Positions 7,867 through 56,879 of a stretch of 64,000 bases of DNA are shown here, in pieces (the stretch's first letter is position 1; the number at the start of each line of letters is the position of its first letter). Made by a program: the position numbers and the translations under genes. This stretch comes from Candidatus Levyibacteriota bacterium. Its GTDB lineage: Bacteria > Patescibacteriota > Microgenomatia > Levybacterales > UBA12049. The notes beneath the pieces are model-generated. The model saw nothing but the letters and a program-made list of their open reading frames with translations. It was not told the origin of the DNA and ran no database searches. Location of the stretch: positions 2,360 to 66,359 of the forward strand of contig JAGOPV010000002.1 of NCBI GenBank assembly GCA_017991775.1, given 5' to 3'.

Positions 7867-8949
7867 ATGAAGGATTCATTGTATGCTTTGGGATTTTCGC
7901 ATTTTGATGGGATAGGTCCGAAGAAATACGCGCTTCTATTACAACGGTTCGGCAATGCAAGAACAGCTTGGAACGCATCAGAGGAAGATCTTTTAAGTGT
8001 TCTTGGAAAGACATTTGGCCCGCGATTTATTGTATTTCGAGATACTTTTGACTTTGGAGTAAAACAAAAAGAATTAGAGAGTACTGGTGCATGGTTTGTG
8101 GATGTTGGAAGTTCTGAGTATCCAAATCTGCTTAAAAAGATTCCAAATCCTCCAATTGTCCTCTTTGGTATTGGTGACAAAACTCTCCTCTCAAGTTTCA
8201 ATGAGCGATATATTGGGATAGTCGGCACAAGAAAGATCACTTCATATGGAATTGATGTGACCACGATGATGGTCGAGGAGCTGGTCCAAAATAATTTTTG
8301 TATTGTTTCAGGCCTTGCCTTGGGTGTCGACGCGTTGGCACATAAAGTTACTTTAGAAAATAGTGGTAGGACTATTGCAGTCCTTGGTTGTGGGGTTGAT
8401 CACTGTTATCCGCAAGAAAATGAAAAGATATATAAAGATATTATAGAGAAGGGAAGTCTGATTATCAGTGAATATCCTCTTGGTGTATCACCAACTCCTG
8501 GATCTTTCCCATCTCGCAATAGGATTATTGCAGGTATCAGTGCTAGTGTACTTGTCACACAAGGTGCTCTGGGGAGCGGGTCACTGATAACCGCGTCAAA
8601 CGCACTGGAATTACACAGACCAGTCTTTGCGGTACCTGGTCCAATTACCTCCTCGCTTTCACAAGGCACAAATGAGCTCTTGAAAGAAGGTGCCATCATG
8701 GTCTCAAATGTTGAAGATATTATGAAGGGTCTTGGAAAGAGTCTGAAAACCTCACAAAAACAGATTGTAAATGGAGATACAGCATCAGAGCAGTCTGTGA
8801 TAGATTTGCTACACGTTCAAGCATATTCTTTCGATGAATTTGTAAAGATCATGCAGCTATCTGTCCAAGAATTAGGTTCGCTCTTATCTGTCATGGAGAT
8901 GAAGGGCTATATAAAGCGAGATGATGAGGGGAATTTTACTCTTATGTAG
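7867..8949 (+). CDS. dprA: DNA-processing protein DprA (Smf)
   Basis: Rossmann-like DprA core GLALGVDALAHK...VLGCGVD...SRNRIIAG...PGPITS. Classic dprA-topA adjacency. Confidence 0.8.
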   Translation: MKDSLYALGFSHFDGIGPKKYALLLQRFGNARTAWNASEEDLLSVLGKTFGPRFIVFRDTFDFGVKQKELESTGAWFVDVGSSEYPNLLKKIPNPPIVLFGIGDKTLLSSFNERYIGIVGTRKITSYGIDVTTMMVEELVQNNFCIVSGLALGVDALAHKVTLENSGRTIAVLGCGVDHCYPQENEKIYKDIIEKGSLIISEYPLGVSPTPGSFPSRNRIIAGISASVLVTQGALGSGSLITASNALELHRPVFAVPGPITSSLSQGTNELLKEGAIMVSNVEDIMKGLGKSLKTSQKQIVNGDTASEQSVIDLLHVQAYSFDEFVKIMQLSVQELGSLLSVMEMKGYIKRDDEGNFTLM

Positions 8950-9092
8950 CTCACAGTAGGCGACTTGATTTGACTCTGAGCCCTTCCAGATTTTGTCGGG
9001 ATTCTATCGGAATTGACAGGAACATGTATAATGGTGAATACACATTGTGAAACTGCCATCATTATCCCGGCTAGATCCGGGATATTTAATGG

Positions 9093-9123
9093 TTCAGATG
9101 CTGAAACTAATTCAGCGTGACAT
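9093..9123 (+). promoter_or_regulatory. single-hairpin copy of the CTGAA-N6-TTCAG / [AG]TGACAT palindromic element, 12 nt upstream of the topA ATG
   Basis: TTCAGATGCTGAAACTAATTCAGCGTGACAT. Same stem and flanking TGACAT as the elements at 15123, 38549 and 47801-48127. Confidence 0.5.
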
Positions 9124-9134
9124 AATACAAGCAT

Positions 9135-11213
9135 ATGAAAACATTAGTAATAGTAGAGTCGCCAACAAAGGCGCGTACAATTGGAAAATATCTTGGCGAT
9201 GACTACATCATCAAATACTCAATGGGGCATATCATGGATCTGCCAAAGAGTACGCTTGGTGTTGACGTGGAAAATAATTTTACTCCTCAGATCGAGGTAC
9301 TCACTGATAAAAAGAAATTAATTGCAGAGTTAAAAGCAGCTGCGAAAGGCGTTGAGAATATCTTGCTTGCAACCGACCCTGACCGTGAAGGTGAGGCTAT
9401 CGCTGCAAATATTCAGACAATATTAAGTGAGATTCCCAAATCAAAAACAAAAAGTGCATCGCAGAAGTTCTCAAGAATAGTCTTCCATGAAATCACTGAA
9501 GGCGCTATCAAAGAGGCGATGACTCATCCGCGTGATGTAGATACCAATTTAGTTGATGCACAGACCGCTCGCCGTGTTCTTGATAGACTTGTTGGATACA
9601 AGTTGTCGCCACTCCTTTGGCAGAAAGTTCGTCGAGGTCTATCTGCTGGACGCGTCCAGAGCGTCGCACTCCGACTCATTGCAGAACGTGAAAAAGAGAT
9701 TGAGAAGTTCCAAAAAGAACCTTATTGGACGATACACGTAGGTTTAAAACAGCAAACAGCAAACAGCAAACAGCAAGAAACAATATTTGACTTGGTGGAG
9801 ATTGATGCAAAAAAGATAGAGCTCTCAGAGTCTTTTGAGCTTTATGATGGAACATATAAGATCTCAAAAACAACGATCGATACTCAAGAGAAAGCAAGGG
9901 AGATTGTCACAGATATAAAGACAAGGGCTTTTGAGATAGCTGAAGTCAATCAGCGCCAAGCAAAGAGAAGTCCTGCAGCGCCATTTACTACCTCAACACT
10001 CCAGCAGGATGCGTCACGAAGGTTTGGGTACTCCGGTAAAAGGACGATGAGTCTTGCTCAGAGACTCTATGAGGAAGGATACATTACTTATCACAGAACT
10101 GACTCAACTACGATGTCTGAAGTCGCGATCACCCAGATTAGAGATTTTGTAAAAAAAGAGTGGGGAGAAAAATATGTGCCAGAAAAGTCGAGGCAGTATG
10201 CTGCCAAGCAAAAATCTGCTCAAGAAGCACATGAAGCGATCCGACCTACAAAATTCTCTGTGAAAGATAGTACAATTGCTCAGGACTTGGAGAAAGATGC
10301 TGCCAAATTATATGATCTTATTTGGCGTAGAGCTGTTGGGTCTCAGATGAGCGATGCCCTTATCGAGTCGACAACTGTTTTTGCAGTCACGATTGAAAAA
10401 GGAATCCATGACTATCGAGTAAAGACGACAGGATCTGTTCTCGTCTTTGAAGGCTTCTTAAAGATTAATCCACAGGCACTGCAAGACACAACACTGCCAC
10501 AATTTAAGGCTAAAGAAAAGATGAAAGTCACACATGTTCTTGATACCCCACACGAGACTCCCGCACCGCCTCGCTATAACGACGCATCTATCATCGCAAC
10601 ACTCGAGGAAAAAGGTATTGGTCGACCGTCTACTTATGCATCTATCATCGCAACACTGGTTGATAGGGCTTATGTCGAGAGAGTTGAAAAGAGGTTTGAG
10701 GCAAGTGCGGTTGGTATGGCTGTTAATGATTTTTTGGTCACTAATTTTGCAGATATCGATGATATTCCGTTCACGGCAGACATGGAAGACAAGTTAGATT
10801 TGATCGCAGATGGAAAGACTGATTGGAAGCTAATGATGAAGGAGTTTTATGATCCATTAGCGCTAAAGCTAGCAACAGTAAAAGATGCAGATCGAGTTAA
10901 GATAAAGACTGAGAGTATTGATCAGAAATGTCCAGAGTGTGGCAATGAACTTGTGATTCGCACGGGAAAATTTGGCAAATTTATTTCGTGTAGTACTTTC
11001 CCGACATGTAAATATACCAAGCCTTTTGTTGAGGAGACAGGCATGATATGCCCTCAGGATGGTGGAAATGTCATTGTGAAGAAGACAAGAAAAGGGAGAA
11101 AATTCTTTGGCTGCGCTAATTATCCAGCCTGCACTTTCGCCGCTTGGAAGCTAGAAGATATAAAGAAAGCTGATGAGGCCACTAATGAAGAAGAGGTCGT
11201 TAAAGAAGTTTGA
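9135..11213 (+). CDS. topA: DNA topoisomerase I
   Basis: TOPRIM N-terminus (MKTLVIVESPTKARTIGKYLG), the active-site Tyr region, and C-terminal C4 zinc ribbons (CPECG...C..C and CPQDG...C..C). Confidence 0.9.
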   Translation: MKTLVIVESPTKARTIGKYLGDDYIIKYSMGHIMDLPKSTLGVDVENNFTPQIEVLTDKKKLIAELKAAAKGVENILLATDPDREGEAIAANIQTILSEIPKSKTKSASQKFSRIVFHEITEGAIKEAMTHPRDVDTNLVDAQTARRVLDRLVGYKLSPLLWQKVRRGLSAGRVQSVALRLIAEREKEIEKFQKEPYWTIHVGLKQQTANSKQQETIFDLVEIDAKKIELSESFELYDGTYKISKTTIDTQEKAREIVTDIKTRAFEIAEVNQRQAKRSPAAPFTTSTLQQDASRRFGYSGKRTMSLAQRLYEEGYITYHRTDSTTMSEVAITQIRDFVKKEWGEKYVPEKSRQYAAKQKSAQEAHEAIRPTKFSVKDSTIAQDLEKDAAKLYDLIWRRAVGSQMSDALIESTTVFAVTIEKGIHDYRVKTTGSVLVFEGFLKINPQALQDTTLPQFKAKEKMKVTHVLDTPHETPAPPRYNDASIIATLEEKGIGRPSTYASIIATLVDRAYVERVEKRFEASAVGMAVNDFLVTNFADIDDIPFTADMEDKLDLIADGKTDWKLMMKEFYDPLALKLATVKDADRVKIKTESIDQKCPECGNELVIRTGKFGKFISCSTFPTCKYTKPFVEETGMICPQDGGNVIVKKTRKGRKFFGCANYPACTFAAWKLEDIKKADEATNEEEVVKEV

Positions 11214-15012: not shown

Positions 15013-15122
15013 TAAGTGAATGTGGCAAGGATTGATCATTTGTAATGATGTATTGATACATCACTACACAATAGGAGAAGTGTTTTAGAGTATAAGTACG
15101 CTAAAACAAGAGAAAACATCTT

Positions 15123-15185
15123 CATGTCATTCTGAATTTATTTCAGAATCTTAATAAAGATGCTGAAACTAGTTCAGCATGACAT
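15123..15185 (+). promoter_or_regulatory. double-hairpin palindromic element overlapping the UDG start codon
   Basis: CATGTCATTCTGAATTTATTTCAGAATC-12nt-GATGCTGAAACTAGTTCAGCATGACAT. The outer ATGTCAT/ATGACAT arms are inverted repeats. The ATG of ATGACAT is the annotated UDG start. A TATAAT at 15185-15190 follows. Confidence 0.55.
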
Positions 15186-15748
15186 ATAATTTTATGAATA
15201 AGCAAAAAGAACTAGATAGAATTTCCAAAGAAATACAGAATTGTGAAGAGTGTAAGCTCGATAAAATCGGAATTTCTGTGCCGGGAGAGGGTGATCCTGA
15301 TGCAGACATTGTCTTTATTGGCGAGGCACCTGGAAAACTAGAGGCTAAAGAGGGAAGGCCATTTATCGGCAGATCAGGACAACTCCTACGTGGCCTTATC
15401 CGCGATATTGGACTGAAGGAAGAGGAGGTCTATATCACAAGTCCCGTGAAGTACCTGCCAGTGCGTGGTACGCCCACATCTGGAGAAATTACTCATGGGA
15501 GGACTCACTTGATGGGGCAGTTTGACATCATCAAGCCCAAAGTCGTAGTACTCATGGGCCGAGTAGCAGCGGAGGGAGTTTTGGAGAAGAAAGTCGCTGT
15601 CGTGAAAGAACATGGACAAGTTATAGAGGAGAAGGATGGAATAAAATATTTTTTAACATACCATCCTGCAGCTGTACTTCGCTTTCCCTGGAAATTCAAA
15701 GAACTTATGACTGAAGATTTTAAAAAGATCCCCAAACTTGTCATTTAA
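15179..15748 (+). CDS. uracil-DNA glycosylase, family 4
   Basis: CEEC...GEGDPDADIVFIGEAPG...GRPFIGRSGQLL matches the family-4 UDG motifs. An alternative start at the ATG at 15194 (MNKQ...) is possible. Confidence 0.75.
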   Translation: MTYNFMNKQKELDRISKEIQNCEECKLDKIGISVPGEGDPDADIVFIGEAPGKLEAKEGRPFIGRSGQLLRGLIRDIGLKEEEVYITSPVKYLPVRGTPTSGEITHGRTHLMGQFDIIKPKVVVLMGRVAAEGVLEKKVAVVKEHGQVIEEKDGIKYFLTYHPAAVLRFPWKFKELMTEDFKKIPKLVI

Positions 15749-23660: not shown

Positions 23661-23952
23661 TAATTTTTTCTTCGTTCTCGCAAGAGAAGTGAAAATCTAA
23701 ATTAGATGTGGGGAAGACATAAAACTTGTGTTAAACAGGTACGTCTCGTATCTGGGTTAATCAAGGAGATGTGTAAAATGACACCAAGCGGAGTGAGTAG
23801 CGCTTGAGTAATCTCGTTATCTCGATTTATCGAGAGTCGAGTAATAGACACTTGTGTCGATTACTTGGCCACTGAGAGATTACATAAAATCTACTCTCGC
23901 CTTTCCTACCACTTCGTAACTAGTCAATCCCGCTTAGCGGGACGAGCAAATG

Positions 23953-25427: not shown

Positions 25428-25466
25428 CCCCGCTTAGCGGGGTGATGACCAGCTTAGCTGGTCCAC

Positions 25467-38548: not shown

Positions 38549-38613
38549 TGTCATGCTGAATTTAGTTCAGCATCTCCCAATTATTAGATCCTGAATCAAG
38601 TTCAGGATGACAT
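38549..38613 (+). promoter_or_regulatory. double-hairpin palindromic element overlapping the glyA start codon
   Basis: TGTCATGCTGAATTTAGTTCAGCATC-13nt-ATCCTGAATCAAGTTCAGGATGACAT. The ATG of ATGACAT is the annotated glyA start. A TATACT box lies at 38531-38536. Confidence 0.55.
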
Positions 38614-39947
38614 TTTTATTTATGCTATCAAACCTCAAAAAAACAGATCCACAGATTTTCGAATTAGTAAAAAGCGAAGAGAAAAGACAACGTGATGTCC
38701 TCGAGATGATCGCCTCAGAGAACTACACTTCCTCGTCAGTTTTAGAAGCTCTTGGTACAGTCCTTAATAATAAGTACTCTGAAGGATATCCCAAGAAGCG
38801 CTATTATCAGGGAAATGAATTTGCTGATAGCGTTGAGATAATCGCGCAAGAGCGAGCAAAGGAATTGTTCGGCGTCCCACATGTGAATGTCCAGCCATAC
38901 TCTGGATCTCCTGCGAATTTAGCGATCTATCTCGCCCTTGTTGACCCGCAAAAAGATAAGGTCATGGGCTTTTCCTTAGCGTTTGGTGGACATCTGACAT
39001 ACGGATCACCTGTATCTATCACAGGAAAGTATTTTAATGTTGTTCATTATGAGCTTGGTGCAGATGGTAAGCTCGATTATGATGCGATTGAGAAGCAGGC
39101 TATAAAAGAGAAGCCAAAGCTGATTATCTGCGGAACTACTGCATATTCACAGATCATCGACTTCAAGCGCTTTGCAAAGATTGCTGATAAAGTTGGAGCG
39201 TATCTCCATGCAGATATCTCGCATATCTCAGGACTCGTTGTTGGTGGTGTCCACCCGAGCCCGGCTCCATATGCTCACACGATCATGACGACCACTCATA
39301 AGACGCTTCGAGGACCTCGAGGTGCGATGGTCATGGTAACTGAGCGAGGTCTTAAGAAAGATCCAGAACTTGCTGAAAAGATCGACAAGGCAGTCTTTCC
39401 TGGTCTACAGGGCGGTCCTCATGACAATCAAACAGCCGGTATCGCAGTTGCATTGAAAGAGGCGAGTACAGCTTCATTTAAGAAGTATGCTGCAAATATC
39501 GTAAAGAATGCTGATAGGCTGGCAAAAGAATTGCAAAAAAGAGGATTTGAGATCGTAAGTGGTGGTACAGAAAATCATCTGATGTGTGTCGATCTTCAGA
39601 ATAAAAGTGTCAACGGTGCAGTAGCTGCACTTGCGCTAGAAGTCGCTGGCATTGTGCTCAATAAGAACTCAGTTCCAAATGATCCCATGCCGCCTTTCTA
39701 TCCATCGGGAATTAGACTTGGTACTCCGGCTCTTACAACAAGAGGGATGAATGAAAAGGATATGGTCAAGGTAGCATCCTGGATGGATGAAGTTATCACA
39801 GAATCTGCTCGATATGAAATGCCGAGTGTGAAAGAGGATCGGGCTGTATTCTGGAAGCAATTTAAGAAAGACGTCACCAAAAATAAGGAATTATTACGAA
39901 TTAATAAAGAGATTAAGGCATTTGCCTCGAAATTCCCCCTTCCATAA
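38607..39947 (+). CDS. glyA: serine hydroxymethyltransferase
   Basis: SHMT signature throughout, including the PLP-Lys region HTTTHKTLRGPRG. 446 aa. The true start may be the second Met (MLSNLKK...). Confidence 0.9.
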   Translation: MTFLFMLSNLKKTDPQIFELVKSEEKRQRDVLEMIASENYTSSSVLEALGTVLNNKYSEGYPKKRYYQGNEFADSVEIIAQERAKELFGVPHVNVQPYSGSPANLAIYLALVDPQKDKVMGFSLAFGGHLTYGSPVSITGKYFNVVHYELGADGKLDYDAIEKQAIKEKPKLIICGTTAYSQIIDFKRFAKIADKVGAYLHADISHISGLVVGGVHPSPAPYAHTIMTTTHKTLRGPRGAMVMVTERGLKKDPELAEKIDKAVFPGLQGGPHDNQTAGIAVALKEASTASFKKYAANIVKNADRLAKELQKRGFEIVSGGTENHLMCVDLQNKSVNGAVAALALEVAGIVLNKNSVPNDPMPPFYPSGIRLGTPALTTRGMNEKDMVKVASWMDEVITESARYEMPSVKEDRAVFWKQFKKDVTKNKELLRINKEIKAFASKFPLP

Positions 39948-47709: not shown

Positions 47710-47800
47710 ATTAGTTTCATCTTGAATCCCGATTTGATCGGAAGAATCTTGCCAGTATCTAAACTTCCTCAAATCTTTAATACAATCATCGCACCATTCT

Positions 47801-48127
47801 TGTCATGCTGAACTTGTTTCAGCATCTAAATCTAAAAGTCCTGGATTCAAATTTTTTATTAGGTTAAGTTTCCATTCCCTTCGCCAGTTCTTCAGCTGTT
47901 TTTCTCTAGCTATTGCGCTGGTAATATCACTCGTCTCCTCAAAGTACACTAATTTTTTAAGATTATATTTTTTGGTGAAACCATCAATGAGTTCATTCTT
48001 GTGCTCATATACTCTTCGTTCAAGATTATTTGTAACACCAATATAGAGAACTGTATTTGTTGCGTTTGATAATATATAAACAAAGTAGTTATTCATTCGA
48101 GATCCTGAAACAAGTTCAGGATGACAT
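47801..48127. mobile_element. GIY-YIG gene cassette bounded by the double-hairpin palindromic element (candidate mini mobile element or homing cassette)
   Basis: Left end TGTCATGCTGAACTTGTTTCAGCAT (47801-47825). Right end CCTGAAACAAGTTCAGGATGACAT (48104-48127). These have the same architecture as the gene-less copies at 15123 and 38549. The last 9 codons of the GIY-YIG ORF are encoded by the left hairpin. Confidence 0.5.
47803..48096 (-). CDS. GIY-YIG nuclease family protein
   Basis: YFVYIL...LYIGVTNNLERRVYEH...Y..KK is a classic short GIY-YIG domain. Confidence 0.75.
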   Translation of the reverse strand: MNNYFVYILSNATNTVLYIGVTNNLERRVYEHKNELIDGFTKKYNLKKLVYFEETSDITSAIAREKQLKNWRREWKLNLIKNLNPGLLDLDAETSSA

Positions 48128-48164
48128 AAAAGGATAATGGGTTCAACATATAATAAAATTAAGC

Positions 48165-56244: not shown

Positions 56245-56267
56245 ATCGTCTCTGGAAAAGTCTTTTT

Positions 56268-56853
56268 GTCATTGCGAGCGATCTAATTTATTCTTCGAAC
56301 GAAGTGAGAAGTATATTCAGTGTAAATATTGGTTCTCGCTTGGCTCGAACAATAATGTATGCTTCGAACTTGTCCCGCTAAGCGGGACTGAGTGAGAAGT
56401 ATGATATATGAAACAATGGAAATGGTTTGTTTACATTCTTGAATGCAAGGATGGACTATATTACACAGGAATAACTTGGAATGTTGCAATTAGAATGGAG
56501 CAACATGCGTCCGGAAAAGGTAGCGCATTCACCTCAAGACATGGTTTTAAAAAACTGCGGCATGTTGAAGAATTTAGCAATCTGGCTCAAGCCCGAGAAA
56601 GAGAAACTCAATTAAAAGATTTTAGTAGGAAGAAAAAAGAGGCTTTATTTAATATTGATTAGTTCTCACTATGTTCGAACAATAATTTACTTTTGAACGG
56701 AAGATTTATTCTTCGAACGAAAAGAGAAGTAAGATTTGGATCAGCAATAGGTAGTTCTCACTTCACTCGAACAATAATTTATTCACAAGTGGAATTATTC
56801 TTCGAACTTGCCACGCTTAGCGGGGCGAAGTGAGAAGTTTCGCTCGCAATGAC
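56268..56853. mobile_element. 586-bp GIY-YIG element with 14-bp perfect terminal inverted repeats and modular internal subrepeats
   Basis: TIR-L GTCATTGCGAGCGA (56268-56281). TIR-R TCGCTCGCAATGAC (56840-56853). Three copies of a 27-nt repeat (rGTTCTCrCT...TCGAACAATAAT). Three copies of TTATTCTTCGAAC. Three or four copies of GTGAGAAG. Inverted CCCGCTAAGCGGG/CACGCTTAGCGGGG hairpins flanking the ORF. Inserted between gnd and proS. Confidence 0.6.
56408..56662 (+). CDS. GIY-YIG nuclease family protein
   Basis: WFVYILECKDGLYYTGITWNVAIRMEQH...R..E GIY-YIG core. 84 aa. Confidence 0.75.
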   Translation: MKQWKWFVYILECKDGLYYTGITWNVAIRMEQHASGKGSAFTSRHGFKKLRHVEEFSNLAQARERETQLKDFSRKKKEALFNID

Positions 56854-56879
56854 AGTGCATACTAGAAAGAACTATTTCT

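Follow-up and report, generated by a model that had tools for sequence, protein, structure and literature searches.

A gene for a small GIY-YIG nuclease in a Candidatus Levybacteria (Patescibacteria) genome lies between two inverted hairpins, and the same hairpins recur nearby in pairs with no gene between them. This raises the question of what the arrangement is: a mobile element, a homing gene lodged in its own target, a host regulatory element next to an unrelated gene, or a nuclease encoded among its substrates. We addressed this question in a 64-kb stretch of that genome (contig JAGOPV010000002.1; the whole stretch is referred to as the window), in which nuclease gene and hairpins occupy positions 47801-48127, between tsf and a Ser-hydrolase gene on the bacterial chromosome. 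The segment is very probably an SRM-ssn-SRM unit of the known Ssn/SRM system, that is, an ssn nuclease gene bracketed by copies of the Ssn-related motif (SRM). The pattern is real but known in kind, as the Ssn/SRM system was described and named in 2025 and the CGTC-tagged repetitive extragenic palindromes (REPs) were described in 2013.

The nuclease gene and the repeats of the window

The 327-bp segment starts with TGTCAT-GCTGAA-CTTGT-TTCAGC-ATC and ends with GAT-CCTGAA-ACAAG-TTCAGG-ATGACAT. The two ends are mutually inverted repeats, each of them a hairpin, with the TGTCAT tags outermost, just as an earlier note on this DNA had described. Once the AT of the tag is counted, the stem comprises 8 bp (ATGCTGAA/TTCAGCAT); the loops measure 5 nt and not, as first reported, 6 nt. 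The left SRM (47801-47828, plus strand, TGTCAT-GCTGAA-CTTGT-TTCAGC-ATCTA) has a DNA folding energy of -6.7 kcal/mol (z = -3.9) and shares sequence with the 3' end of ssn (47803-48096, minus strand), including its stop codon. The stem of the right SRM (48100-48127, minus strand, on which it reads TGTCAT-CCTGAA-CTTGT-TTCAGG-ATCTC) is separated by 5 nt from the ATG start codon of the gene. The open reading frame (ORF) encodes 97 aa, one fewer than had been counted, and its C-terminus is indeed encoded by the left hairpin, which contributes the last seven to eight codons (D-A-E-T-S-S-A) instead of nine, the TGA stop lying inside the ATGACA tag. The same ending recurs among homologues: 17 of 31 aligned sequences end in D-[AP]-E-T-S-S-[AG], the translated hairpin, with the stop in the tag.

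The hairpin is far more frequent in the window than expected. CTGAA-N5-TTCAG occurs at exactly seven sites in 64 kb, compared to 0.20 expected, and none of 100 shuffled sequences reaches seven, while the version with a six-nucleotide loop proposed for searching in the earlier note matches nothing. Allowing up to three mismatches, the 26-nt motif has eight matches against 0.00 expected. The TGTC tag, the 8-bp stem ATSCTGAA and the 5-nt loop are common to all seven copies, which form three tags-outward pairs, one of them bracketing the GIY-YIG ORF, and one solo copy; five copies hence lie beyond the ssn unit, at three other intergenic sites. Two of these sites are the gene-less dimers that had been placed at 15123-15185 and 38549-38613. 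Both exist, with slightly different ends and spacers of 10 and 14 nt between the 8-bp stems rather than 12-13 nt: the first (15125-15184) lies 5' of the gene for a family-4 uracil-DNA glycosylase (UDG), the second (38549-38612) between folA and glyA. The third site, previously described as a single hairpin at 9093-9123, consists of a solo SRM at 9095-9122 (minus strand, TGTCAC-GCTGAA-TTAGT-TTCAGC-ATC), 12 nt 5' of topA, and an adjoining second hairpin at 9064-9083 (plus strand, ATCCCGG-CTAGAT-CCGGGAT) without an intact TGTCAT tag, which may be the decayed partner of the solo copy. Folded as single-stranded DNA (ssDNA), all hairpins and dimers are far more stable than shuffled controls.

The repeats also affect gene calling. 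The ATG of the ATGACAT tag (15179-15193 and 38607-38621) is in frame 15 nt before the real UDG and glyA starts, and ORF callers consequently add five codons from the repeat to both genes; the deposited UDG protein has 189 aa, those of repeat-less relatives 184 aa.

The 97-aa protein consists of a single GIY-YIG domain (Pfam PF01541, residues 3-78, E 3e-17), and an identical protein is annotated in a Candidatus Levybacteria metagenome-assembled genome (MAG). Its AlphaFold2 model is one compact domain (pLDDT 90) with only GIY-YIG proteins among the best PDB matches (UPF0213, Slx1, UvrC-N); a search of NCBIfam gave sub-threshold matches only. The characterised homologue is SsnA of Neisseria meningitidis, a 94-aa GIY-YIG protein (CDD cd10448) that binds the NTS repeat CGTCATTCCCGCGMAVGCGGGAATCYRG as ssDNA only and cuts a few nucleotides upstream of it, without cutting double-stranded DNA (dsDNA) or binding the RNA form (Chenal et al., Nat Commun 2025; PMC11893778). 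In that study the three nucleotides before the palindrome controlled cutting and the C after it binding, the exchanges Y6A, Y17A and E64A abolished cleavage, and SsnA reduced transformation by NTS-containing DNA. We took the SsnA orthologue from an N. gonorrhoeae chromosome filed among plasmid records, on which tblastn with the window protein detects a single locus (E 5e-20; the criterion of Chenal et al. is E < 1e-10), a 94-aa ORF with Y6, Y17 and E64 that lies amid NTS repeats. Pairwise BLASTP of the window protein and gonococcal SsnA gives 51% identity over 85 residues without gaps (E 4e-30); the catalytic residues Y7, Y18 and E65 align with Y6, Y17 and E64 of SsnA and are invariant across 31 aligned homologues. 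The 97-aa product is, by sequence, a GIY-YIG nuclease with a single domain and orthologous in kind to SsnA of Neisseria. The UPF0213/YhbQ type was rejected as an assignment, the likeness being at fold level only: the protein has no match to PDB sequences at E <= 0.01, including the UPF0213 structures BH0048 and EF2693.

With the Neisseria system the window unit shares a GIY-YIG protein that has one domain, about 95 aa and the same catalytic residues, a gene bracketed by inverted hairpins with a 5' (C/T)GTCAT tag and a 3' C, and further intergenic copies of the hairpin. It differs in the stem-loop, ATSCTGAA-N5-TTCAGSAT as opposed to ATTCCCGCG-N3-CGCGGGAAT in Neisseria, in the ORF, which continues across the 3' repeat as far as a stop codon in the tag, and in its host, since Patescibacteria (the candidate phyla radiation) is a lineage not treated by Chenal et al. 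in 2025.

The association of nuclease and hairpin across the family

Metagenomes hold thousands of proteins that are 60-77% identical to the Ssn of the window, and a scan of one genome per species yielded 80 loci in Patescibacteria, Nitrospirota, Bacteroidota, Spirochaetota, Clostridia, Proteobacteria, Elusimicrobia and others. For 83 homologue genes, the flanks were searched for inverted repeats and then for [ACT]GTCA[TC] followed by a hairpin. SRMs flank 32 of these 83 nearest homologue genes on both sides, with the tags always outward, and 49 on at least one side, close to the published 42% and 71%, respectively (PMC11893778). The homologues span Patescibacteria to Treponema, Clostridia and Proteobacteria and stand next to unrelated genes. 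The link between GIY-YIG gene and hairpin pair that the earlier note had drawn from one locus is real across the family: hairpin pairs do flank other GIY-YIG copies. In the loci that we fetched, adjacent SRM pairs are oriented tags-outward in 70 cases, tags-inward in 39 and on the same strand in 36, and the 70 tags-outward pairs include 34 empty ones (spacer < 60 nt) and 28 with an ssn-sized spacer (200-450 nt).

The stems vary by lineage with their pairing kept (CCTGAA/TTCAGG, TCCCGCG/CGCGGGA, GCCGGGC/GCCCGGC, TCCTGC/GCAGGA and others). Among 33 distinct flanking motifs of the 8/5/8 layout, changes on both sides occur at six of the eight stem pairs (55 cells versus 15 in shuffles); the motifs were picked for at least seven pairs, which biases the percentage of paired positions but not the compensatory changes. 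Positions G2, T3, C4, A5 and C26, the C after the stem, are invariant in the 33 motifs, and these are the positions found experimentally critical by Chenal et al. (GTC before the palindrome, C after it). Ssn homologues of other species cut their own motifs (PMC11893778), and matches to the Neisseria NTS consensus flank the genes of five homologues with 61-67% identity to the window protein. The CTGAA-type motif of the window is nearly identical from Wolfebacteria to Elusimicrobia. It escapes the published SRM search pattern, HGTCWYN(0-2)YYVSBRHN(0-5)WNVSBRGN(0-2)RNCYNB, a heuristic derived from 29 genomes and not a definition of the family (PMC11893778), so that the published association figures are underestimates; that pattern matches near only 17 of our 83 homologue genes. 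The repeats of the window are the cognate Ssn-related motifs, composed of a 5' GTCA tag, an 8-bp stem starting with AT, a 5-nt loop and a 3' C.

By their anatomy, the same repeats fall into the class of the CGTC-tagged REPs, amongst them dRS3 of Neisseria and RPE-4/6 of Rickettsia, which carry a CGTC or TGTC tag, an 8-9 bp stem starting with AT and a 4-5 nt loop, are mostly arranged as head-to-head dimers and were said to 'lack a dedicated transposase' (Di Nocera et al., BMC Genomics 2013; PMC3733652). The window copies share the unpaired TGTC tag, the AT-starting 8-bp stem, the 5-nt loop and the intergenic location, and just as head-to-head dimers predominate among the REPs, tags-outward dimers account for three of the four sites in the window. 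The 3' tail is CCA in the REPs and C-T-N in the window, with an invariant C and the rest variable; the phyla listed in 2013 do not include Patescibacteria; and in place of repeats without a dedicated enzyme, the window, like the loci of Chenal et al., has a GIY-YIG gene between the repeats.

The location of the hairpins might also suggest operators, attenuators, mRNA stabilisers or terminators of the host, beside which the GIY-YIG gene stands by accident. The four sites, all of them intergenic, precede the start codons of plus-strand genes (topA, family-4 UDG, glyA and the Ser-hydrolase gene) by 8-40 nt within a co-directional gene array and are hence probably transcribed, and REP-type repeats affect mRNA stability (PMC3733652). 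We consider an origin as host elements very improbable, as the same tag and hairpin stand beside homologous nuclease genes with unrelated neighbours in dozens of unrelated phyla, are not conserved 5' of glyA or UDG in relatives, and have an RNA counterpart in Neisseria that SsnA does not bind (PMC11893778). No T-run follows the hairpins and no terminator-like site was called at the four sites, and Rfam, at gathering thresholds, reports only the 16S rRNA and two tRNAs in the window, without any hairpin family or intron. We also considered TGACAT as a sigma-70 -35 box and rejected it, since its distance to TATAAT-like boxes differs from site to site.

Two side observations concern the recovery and the structure of the repeats in assemblies. 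Many Ssn homologues lie on contigs of about 1 kb, as repeats do, and in a 93%-identity strain (L082) the contig ends exactly in the 3' SRM, at 10295. The inverted repeats apparently break short-read assemblies, and unit counts in MAGs are for that reason probably underestimated. The closest Ssn outside the species, 77% identical, is found in another Patescibacteria MAG (L009). At 10276-10352 of that locus, the loop of the 3' SRM (ATGCCGAA...TTCGGCAT-GACA) holds a second SRM-like hairpin (TCCTGAA...TTCAGGA), and the loop of the second holds a third (ATCCCGAA-ATAAA-TTCGGGAT); this three-deep nest (-19.7 kcal/mol, z = -6.2) suggests that repeats insert into the single-stranded loops of other repeats.

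Gain and loss of units and dimers, and a second tagged element

Presence and absence among relatives, a comparison that the earlier note had recommended, revealed polymorphism both at the dimer 5' of UDG and at the ssn unit. In L171, whose UDG is 79% identical, the SpoU-UDG spacer is kept without a 74-bp block (window 15113-15186) that holds the empty dimer, and three closer relatives (88, 88 and 85%) also have no dimer 5' of UDG; given these four relatives, insertion in the lineage of the window is the parsimonious reading. For the dimer 5' of glyA, the 80 related loci compared show no conservation, but with at most 74% identity they are too far removed for a precise empty-site comparison. 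The ssn unit lies between tsf and the hydrolase gene in the 93% strain, and in an 85% relative (L083/L084) the tsf-hydrolase interval has neither the unit nor the hairpins. When L083 926-1904 is compared to window 47710-48164, a 314-aa APH/fructosamine-kinase-like gene is seen to overlap the hydrolase start in L083; the difference between the two genomes is a replacement rather than a simple insertion. In a 73% relative (L087), an ssn gene of 74% identity and a hairpin occur at the same junction with the hydrolase gene, and this shared junction suggests long residence and not frequent movement. A further locus, L086, showed no synteny with the window. Finally, one Patescibacteria contig carries two copies of the unit 95 kb apart (L004/L007), which are 83% identical from tag to tag and have no similarity beyond.

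As a side observation, the SpoU-UDG spacer (15047-15110) contains two more palindromes, TGATGTAT-TGA-TACATCA and GTTTTAG-N11-CTAAAAC. Both are kept in L171, where the second is a perfect 26-nt palindrome; neither of them is related to the SRMs.

The block-wise gain and loss of units and dimers, together with an ssn gene that can persist at its site over long periods, resembles the dynamics of REPINs and their RAYT transposases. The earlier note had left open whether the hairpin pairs are the ends of a cassette with MITE-like (miniature inverted-repeat transposable element) empty derivatives or preferred insertion sites. The former is favoured, because the homology of the L004/L007 copies runs from tag to tag, because the empty pair is absent as a block from L171 and three relatives, and because the whole ssn unit, hairpins included, is absent from L083.

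The latter option corresponds to homing, in which the pairs would be pre-existing targets and a free-standing GIY-YIG homing endonuclease gene would have inserted into one of them. GIY-YIG is a classic homing-endonuclease fold, and the gene occupies nearly the entire spacer of the pair, its ATG lying 5 nt from the right stem. We nevertheless regard homing as highly unlikely. Among the orthologous sites compared, we found none that is filled in some genomes and empty in others; where the gene is absent the hairpins are absent as well (L083). The empty pair, moreover, is an insertion in its own right when compared with L171. The homing endonucleases I-TevI and I-BmoI share the catalytic fold and the link to selfish DNA, but their catalytic domain is joined to a DNA-binding domain and a long linker, they cleave dsDNA and they reside in introns or phages, whereas the window protein is a bare 97-aa catalytic domain, without a DNA-binding or linker module, encoded in a bacterial intergenic region. 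Its characterised homologue SsnA does not cut dsDNA (PMC11893778).

A more far-reaching explanation takes SRM-ssn-SRM for an autonomous insertion sequence, with the GIY-YIG protein itself as transposase and the empty dimers as MITEs that are now being copied. It is conceivable, though we doubt it. The layout with outermost tags is that of an insertion sequence, and Chenal et al. had pointed out this resemblance for NTS-ssnA-NTS and raised domestication and a mobile origin as a hypothesis (PMC11893778). Homology between the L004/L007 copies is bounded exactly by the tags, but at only 83% identity, which excludes a recent burst. The empty dimer is present or absent in an otherwise conserved spacer (window versus L171), with four relatives lacking it, yet no target-site duplication is visible at 15113-15186. 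While the unit is missing from the 85% relative L083, the 73% relative has ssn by the same hydrolase gene at similar divergence (74%), which suggests vertical inheritance. The homologues on contigs of about 1 kb and the hairpins nested in the SRM loop of L009 would fit a spreading repeat, although the 64 kb hold a single Ssn-type gene. At the level of mechanism, SsnA only cleaves. To our knowledge, neither strand-transfer nor ligation activity has been described for any GIY-YIG protein. Furthermore, only one end of the unit is in cleavable orientation on each strand, so that a cycle of the IS200/IS605 type does not follow simply. A search for ssn remnants in the dimer spacers, as would be left by internal deletion in a MITE, gave none that is convincing; the tblastn match at 15132-15179 (E 0.36) is translated hairpin.

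REPIN-RAYT systems (Nunvar 2010; Bertels & Rainey 2011, PMC3116915) have a like anatomy, with a usually single-copy nuclease gene between inverted hairpins, scattered gene-less inverted dimers, recognition of ssDNA hairpins and a gene apparently inherited vertically over long periods; there, however, the enzyme is an HUH/Y1 tyrosine transposase and the tag GTAG, in contrast to GIY-YIG and GTCA in the window. The peel-and-paste elements of the IS200/IS605 family likewise have ssDNA hairpin ends that are recognised and cut a short distance away, but they carry TnpA, which the window unit lacks, and both of their ends, as direct hairpins, are cut on one strand, whereas the inverted motifs of the window offer one cleavable end per strand. 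For Ssn, unlike RAYT, we know of no covalent intermediate or strand transfer.

In its strongest form, the transposon explanation would make SRM units and gene-less dimers a still-active class of transposable elements mobilised by a bare GIY-YIG ssDNA nuclease, a tentative idea to which we assign a minor share of the probability. If it were true, the 'dedicated transposase' that the CGTC-tagged REPs have long lacked would be Ssn, and insertion would be completed by host replication or repair, preferably in single-stranded hairpin loops or in AT-rich spacers 5' of genes. The block insertion relative to L171, the L004/L007 homology and the nesting in L009 are compatible with an active element and no proof of it. 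In our literature search on GIY-YIG proteins with REPIN/RAYT or COG2827 and on follow-ups of Ssn, we found no study of mobility. For the cassette of the earlier note, gain and loss in blocks give partial support, while a role of the nuclease as transposase or homing enzyme is unsupported.

The window contains a second small GIY-YIG gene (56408-56662, plus strand, 84 aa), located in an element at 56267-56854. Its product is of the UPF0213/YhbQ type (PDB 1zg2, E 8e-15), unlike the 97-aa protein, and is 37% identical to the window Ssn and 33% to SsnA. At the two ends of this 588-bp element stands a perfect 15-bp inverted repeat, again with the tag at its start (TGTCATTGCGAGCGA ... TCGCTCGCAATGACA), and the interior is packed with copies, both direct and inverted, of a 28-30-nt unit, ATTTATTCTTCGAACGAAGTGAGAAGTA, absent elsewhere in the window. 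A UPF0213-type gene in a mosaic of tagged repeats may merit attention, SRMs being tied almost exclusively to GIY-YIG proteins of cd10448 (GIY-YIG_unchar_3) (PMC11893778); in the one other UPF0213-type gene compared, from L009, no TGTCAT-tagged inverted repeats were present, and the matches on plasmids were too divergent to be of use. The mini-palindrome CCGCTWAGCGG occurs four times in the window, compared to 0.26 expected, twice inside this element (56375-56385 and 56813-56823) and twice just after RNA genes, the 16S rRNA and a tRNA (23930-23940 and 25430-25440).

Proposed action of Ssn and its implications

By analogy to the characterised enzymes, the Ssn of the window would bind its motif only in ssDNA with the hairpin folded, reading both shape and sequence, and would cut the same strand at a distance of a few nucleotides on the 5' side of the tag, which places the cuts immediately outside the ends of the unit or dimer. 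At the ssn unit, the predicted cuts fall at about 47798 on the plus strand and about 48130 on the minus strand. The gene-less dimers and the solo copy would be further substrates of the same Ssn, dispersed in intergenic DNA. Given their gain and loss as blocks, the dimers and the complete unit would behave as REPIN- or MITE-type elements with Ssn as their associated nuclease, the ssn copy itself being a long-term resident. The DNA cleaved would likely be motif-bearing ssDNA, either incoming transforming DNA or intermediates of replication and repair, and recombination would be shaped by it as in Neisseria. A role related to transformation is plausible in the lineage of the window, since it carries competence genes, with dprA adjoining one of the copies. 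DprA loads RecA on incoming ssDNA during transformation. The gene (7867-8949) ends about 150 nt before the repeat site at 9064-9122.

Several points weigh against this assignment or limit its reach. The window contains no sequence that fits the published degenerate SRM pattern. For strand specificity and cut position, the extrapolation starts from enzymes that are about 50% identical, and the cut sites of characterised Ssn proteins differ by at least 1 nt among themselves (PMC11893778). The transformation effect is established for Neisseria only, and with all four sites directly 5' of genes, the repeats may have an RNA-level or regulatory side-role. The copy counts refer to the 64-kb window. 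Even so, we hold an SRM-ssn-SRM unit of the Ssn/SRM system to be the best account of the segment.

Relative to the literature that we found, the locus adds a Patescibacteria host, a CTGAA-type motif outside the published SRM pattern, an ORF that reads through into the 3' repeat, and polymorphisms at orthologous sites. The latter are direct though limited evidence that units and dimers are gained and lost as blocks, and bear on the questions of whether the repeats are mobile and what moves them; block-wise mobility is plausible, and transposition by Ssn is a proposal only. The CTGAA-type motif and its enzyme may offer ssDNA tools a new specificity. For the Levybacteria genome, what is annotated as a 'GIY-YIG nuclease family protein' can now be named a putative site-specific ssDNA endonuclease of the Ssn type, and the palindromes 5' of topA, UDG, glyA and the hydrolase gene can be read as cognate Ssn repeats rather than promoters or terminators. 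The lifestyle of Patescibacteria depends on DNA uptake. The Ssn system is common in these bacteria, and a 'restriction' of ssDNA would be relevant there.

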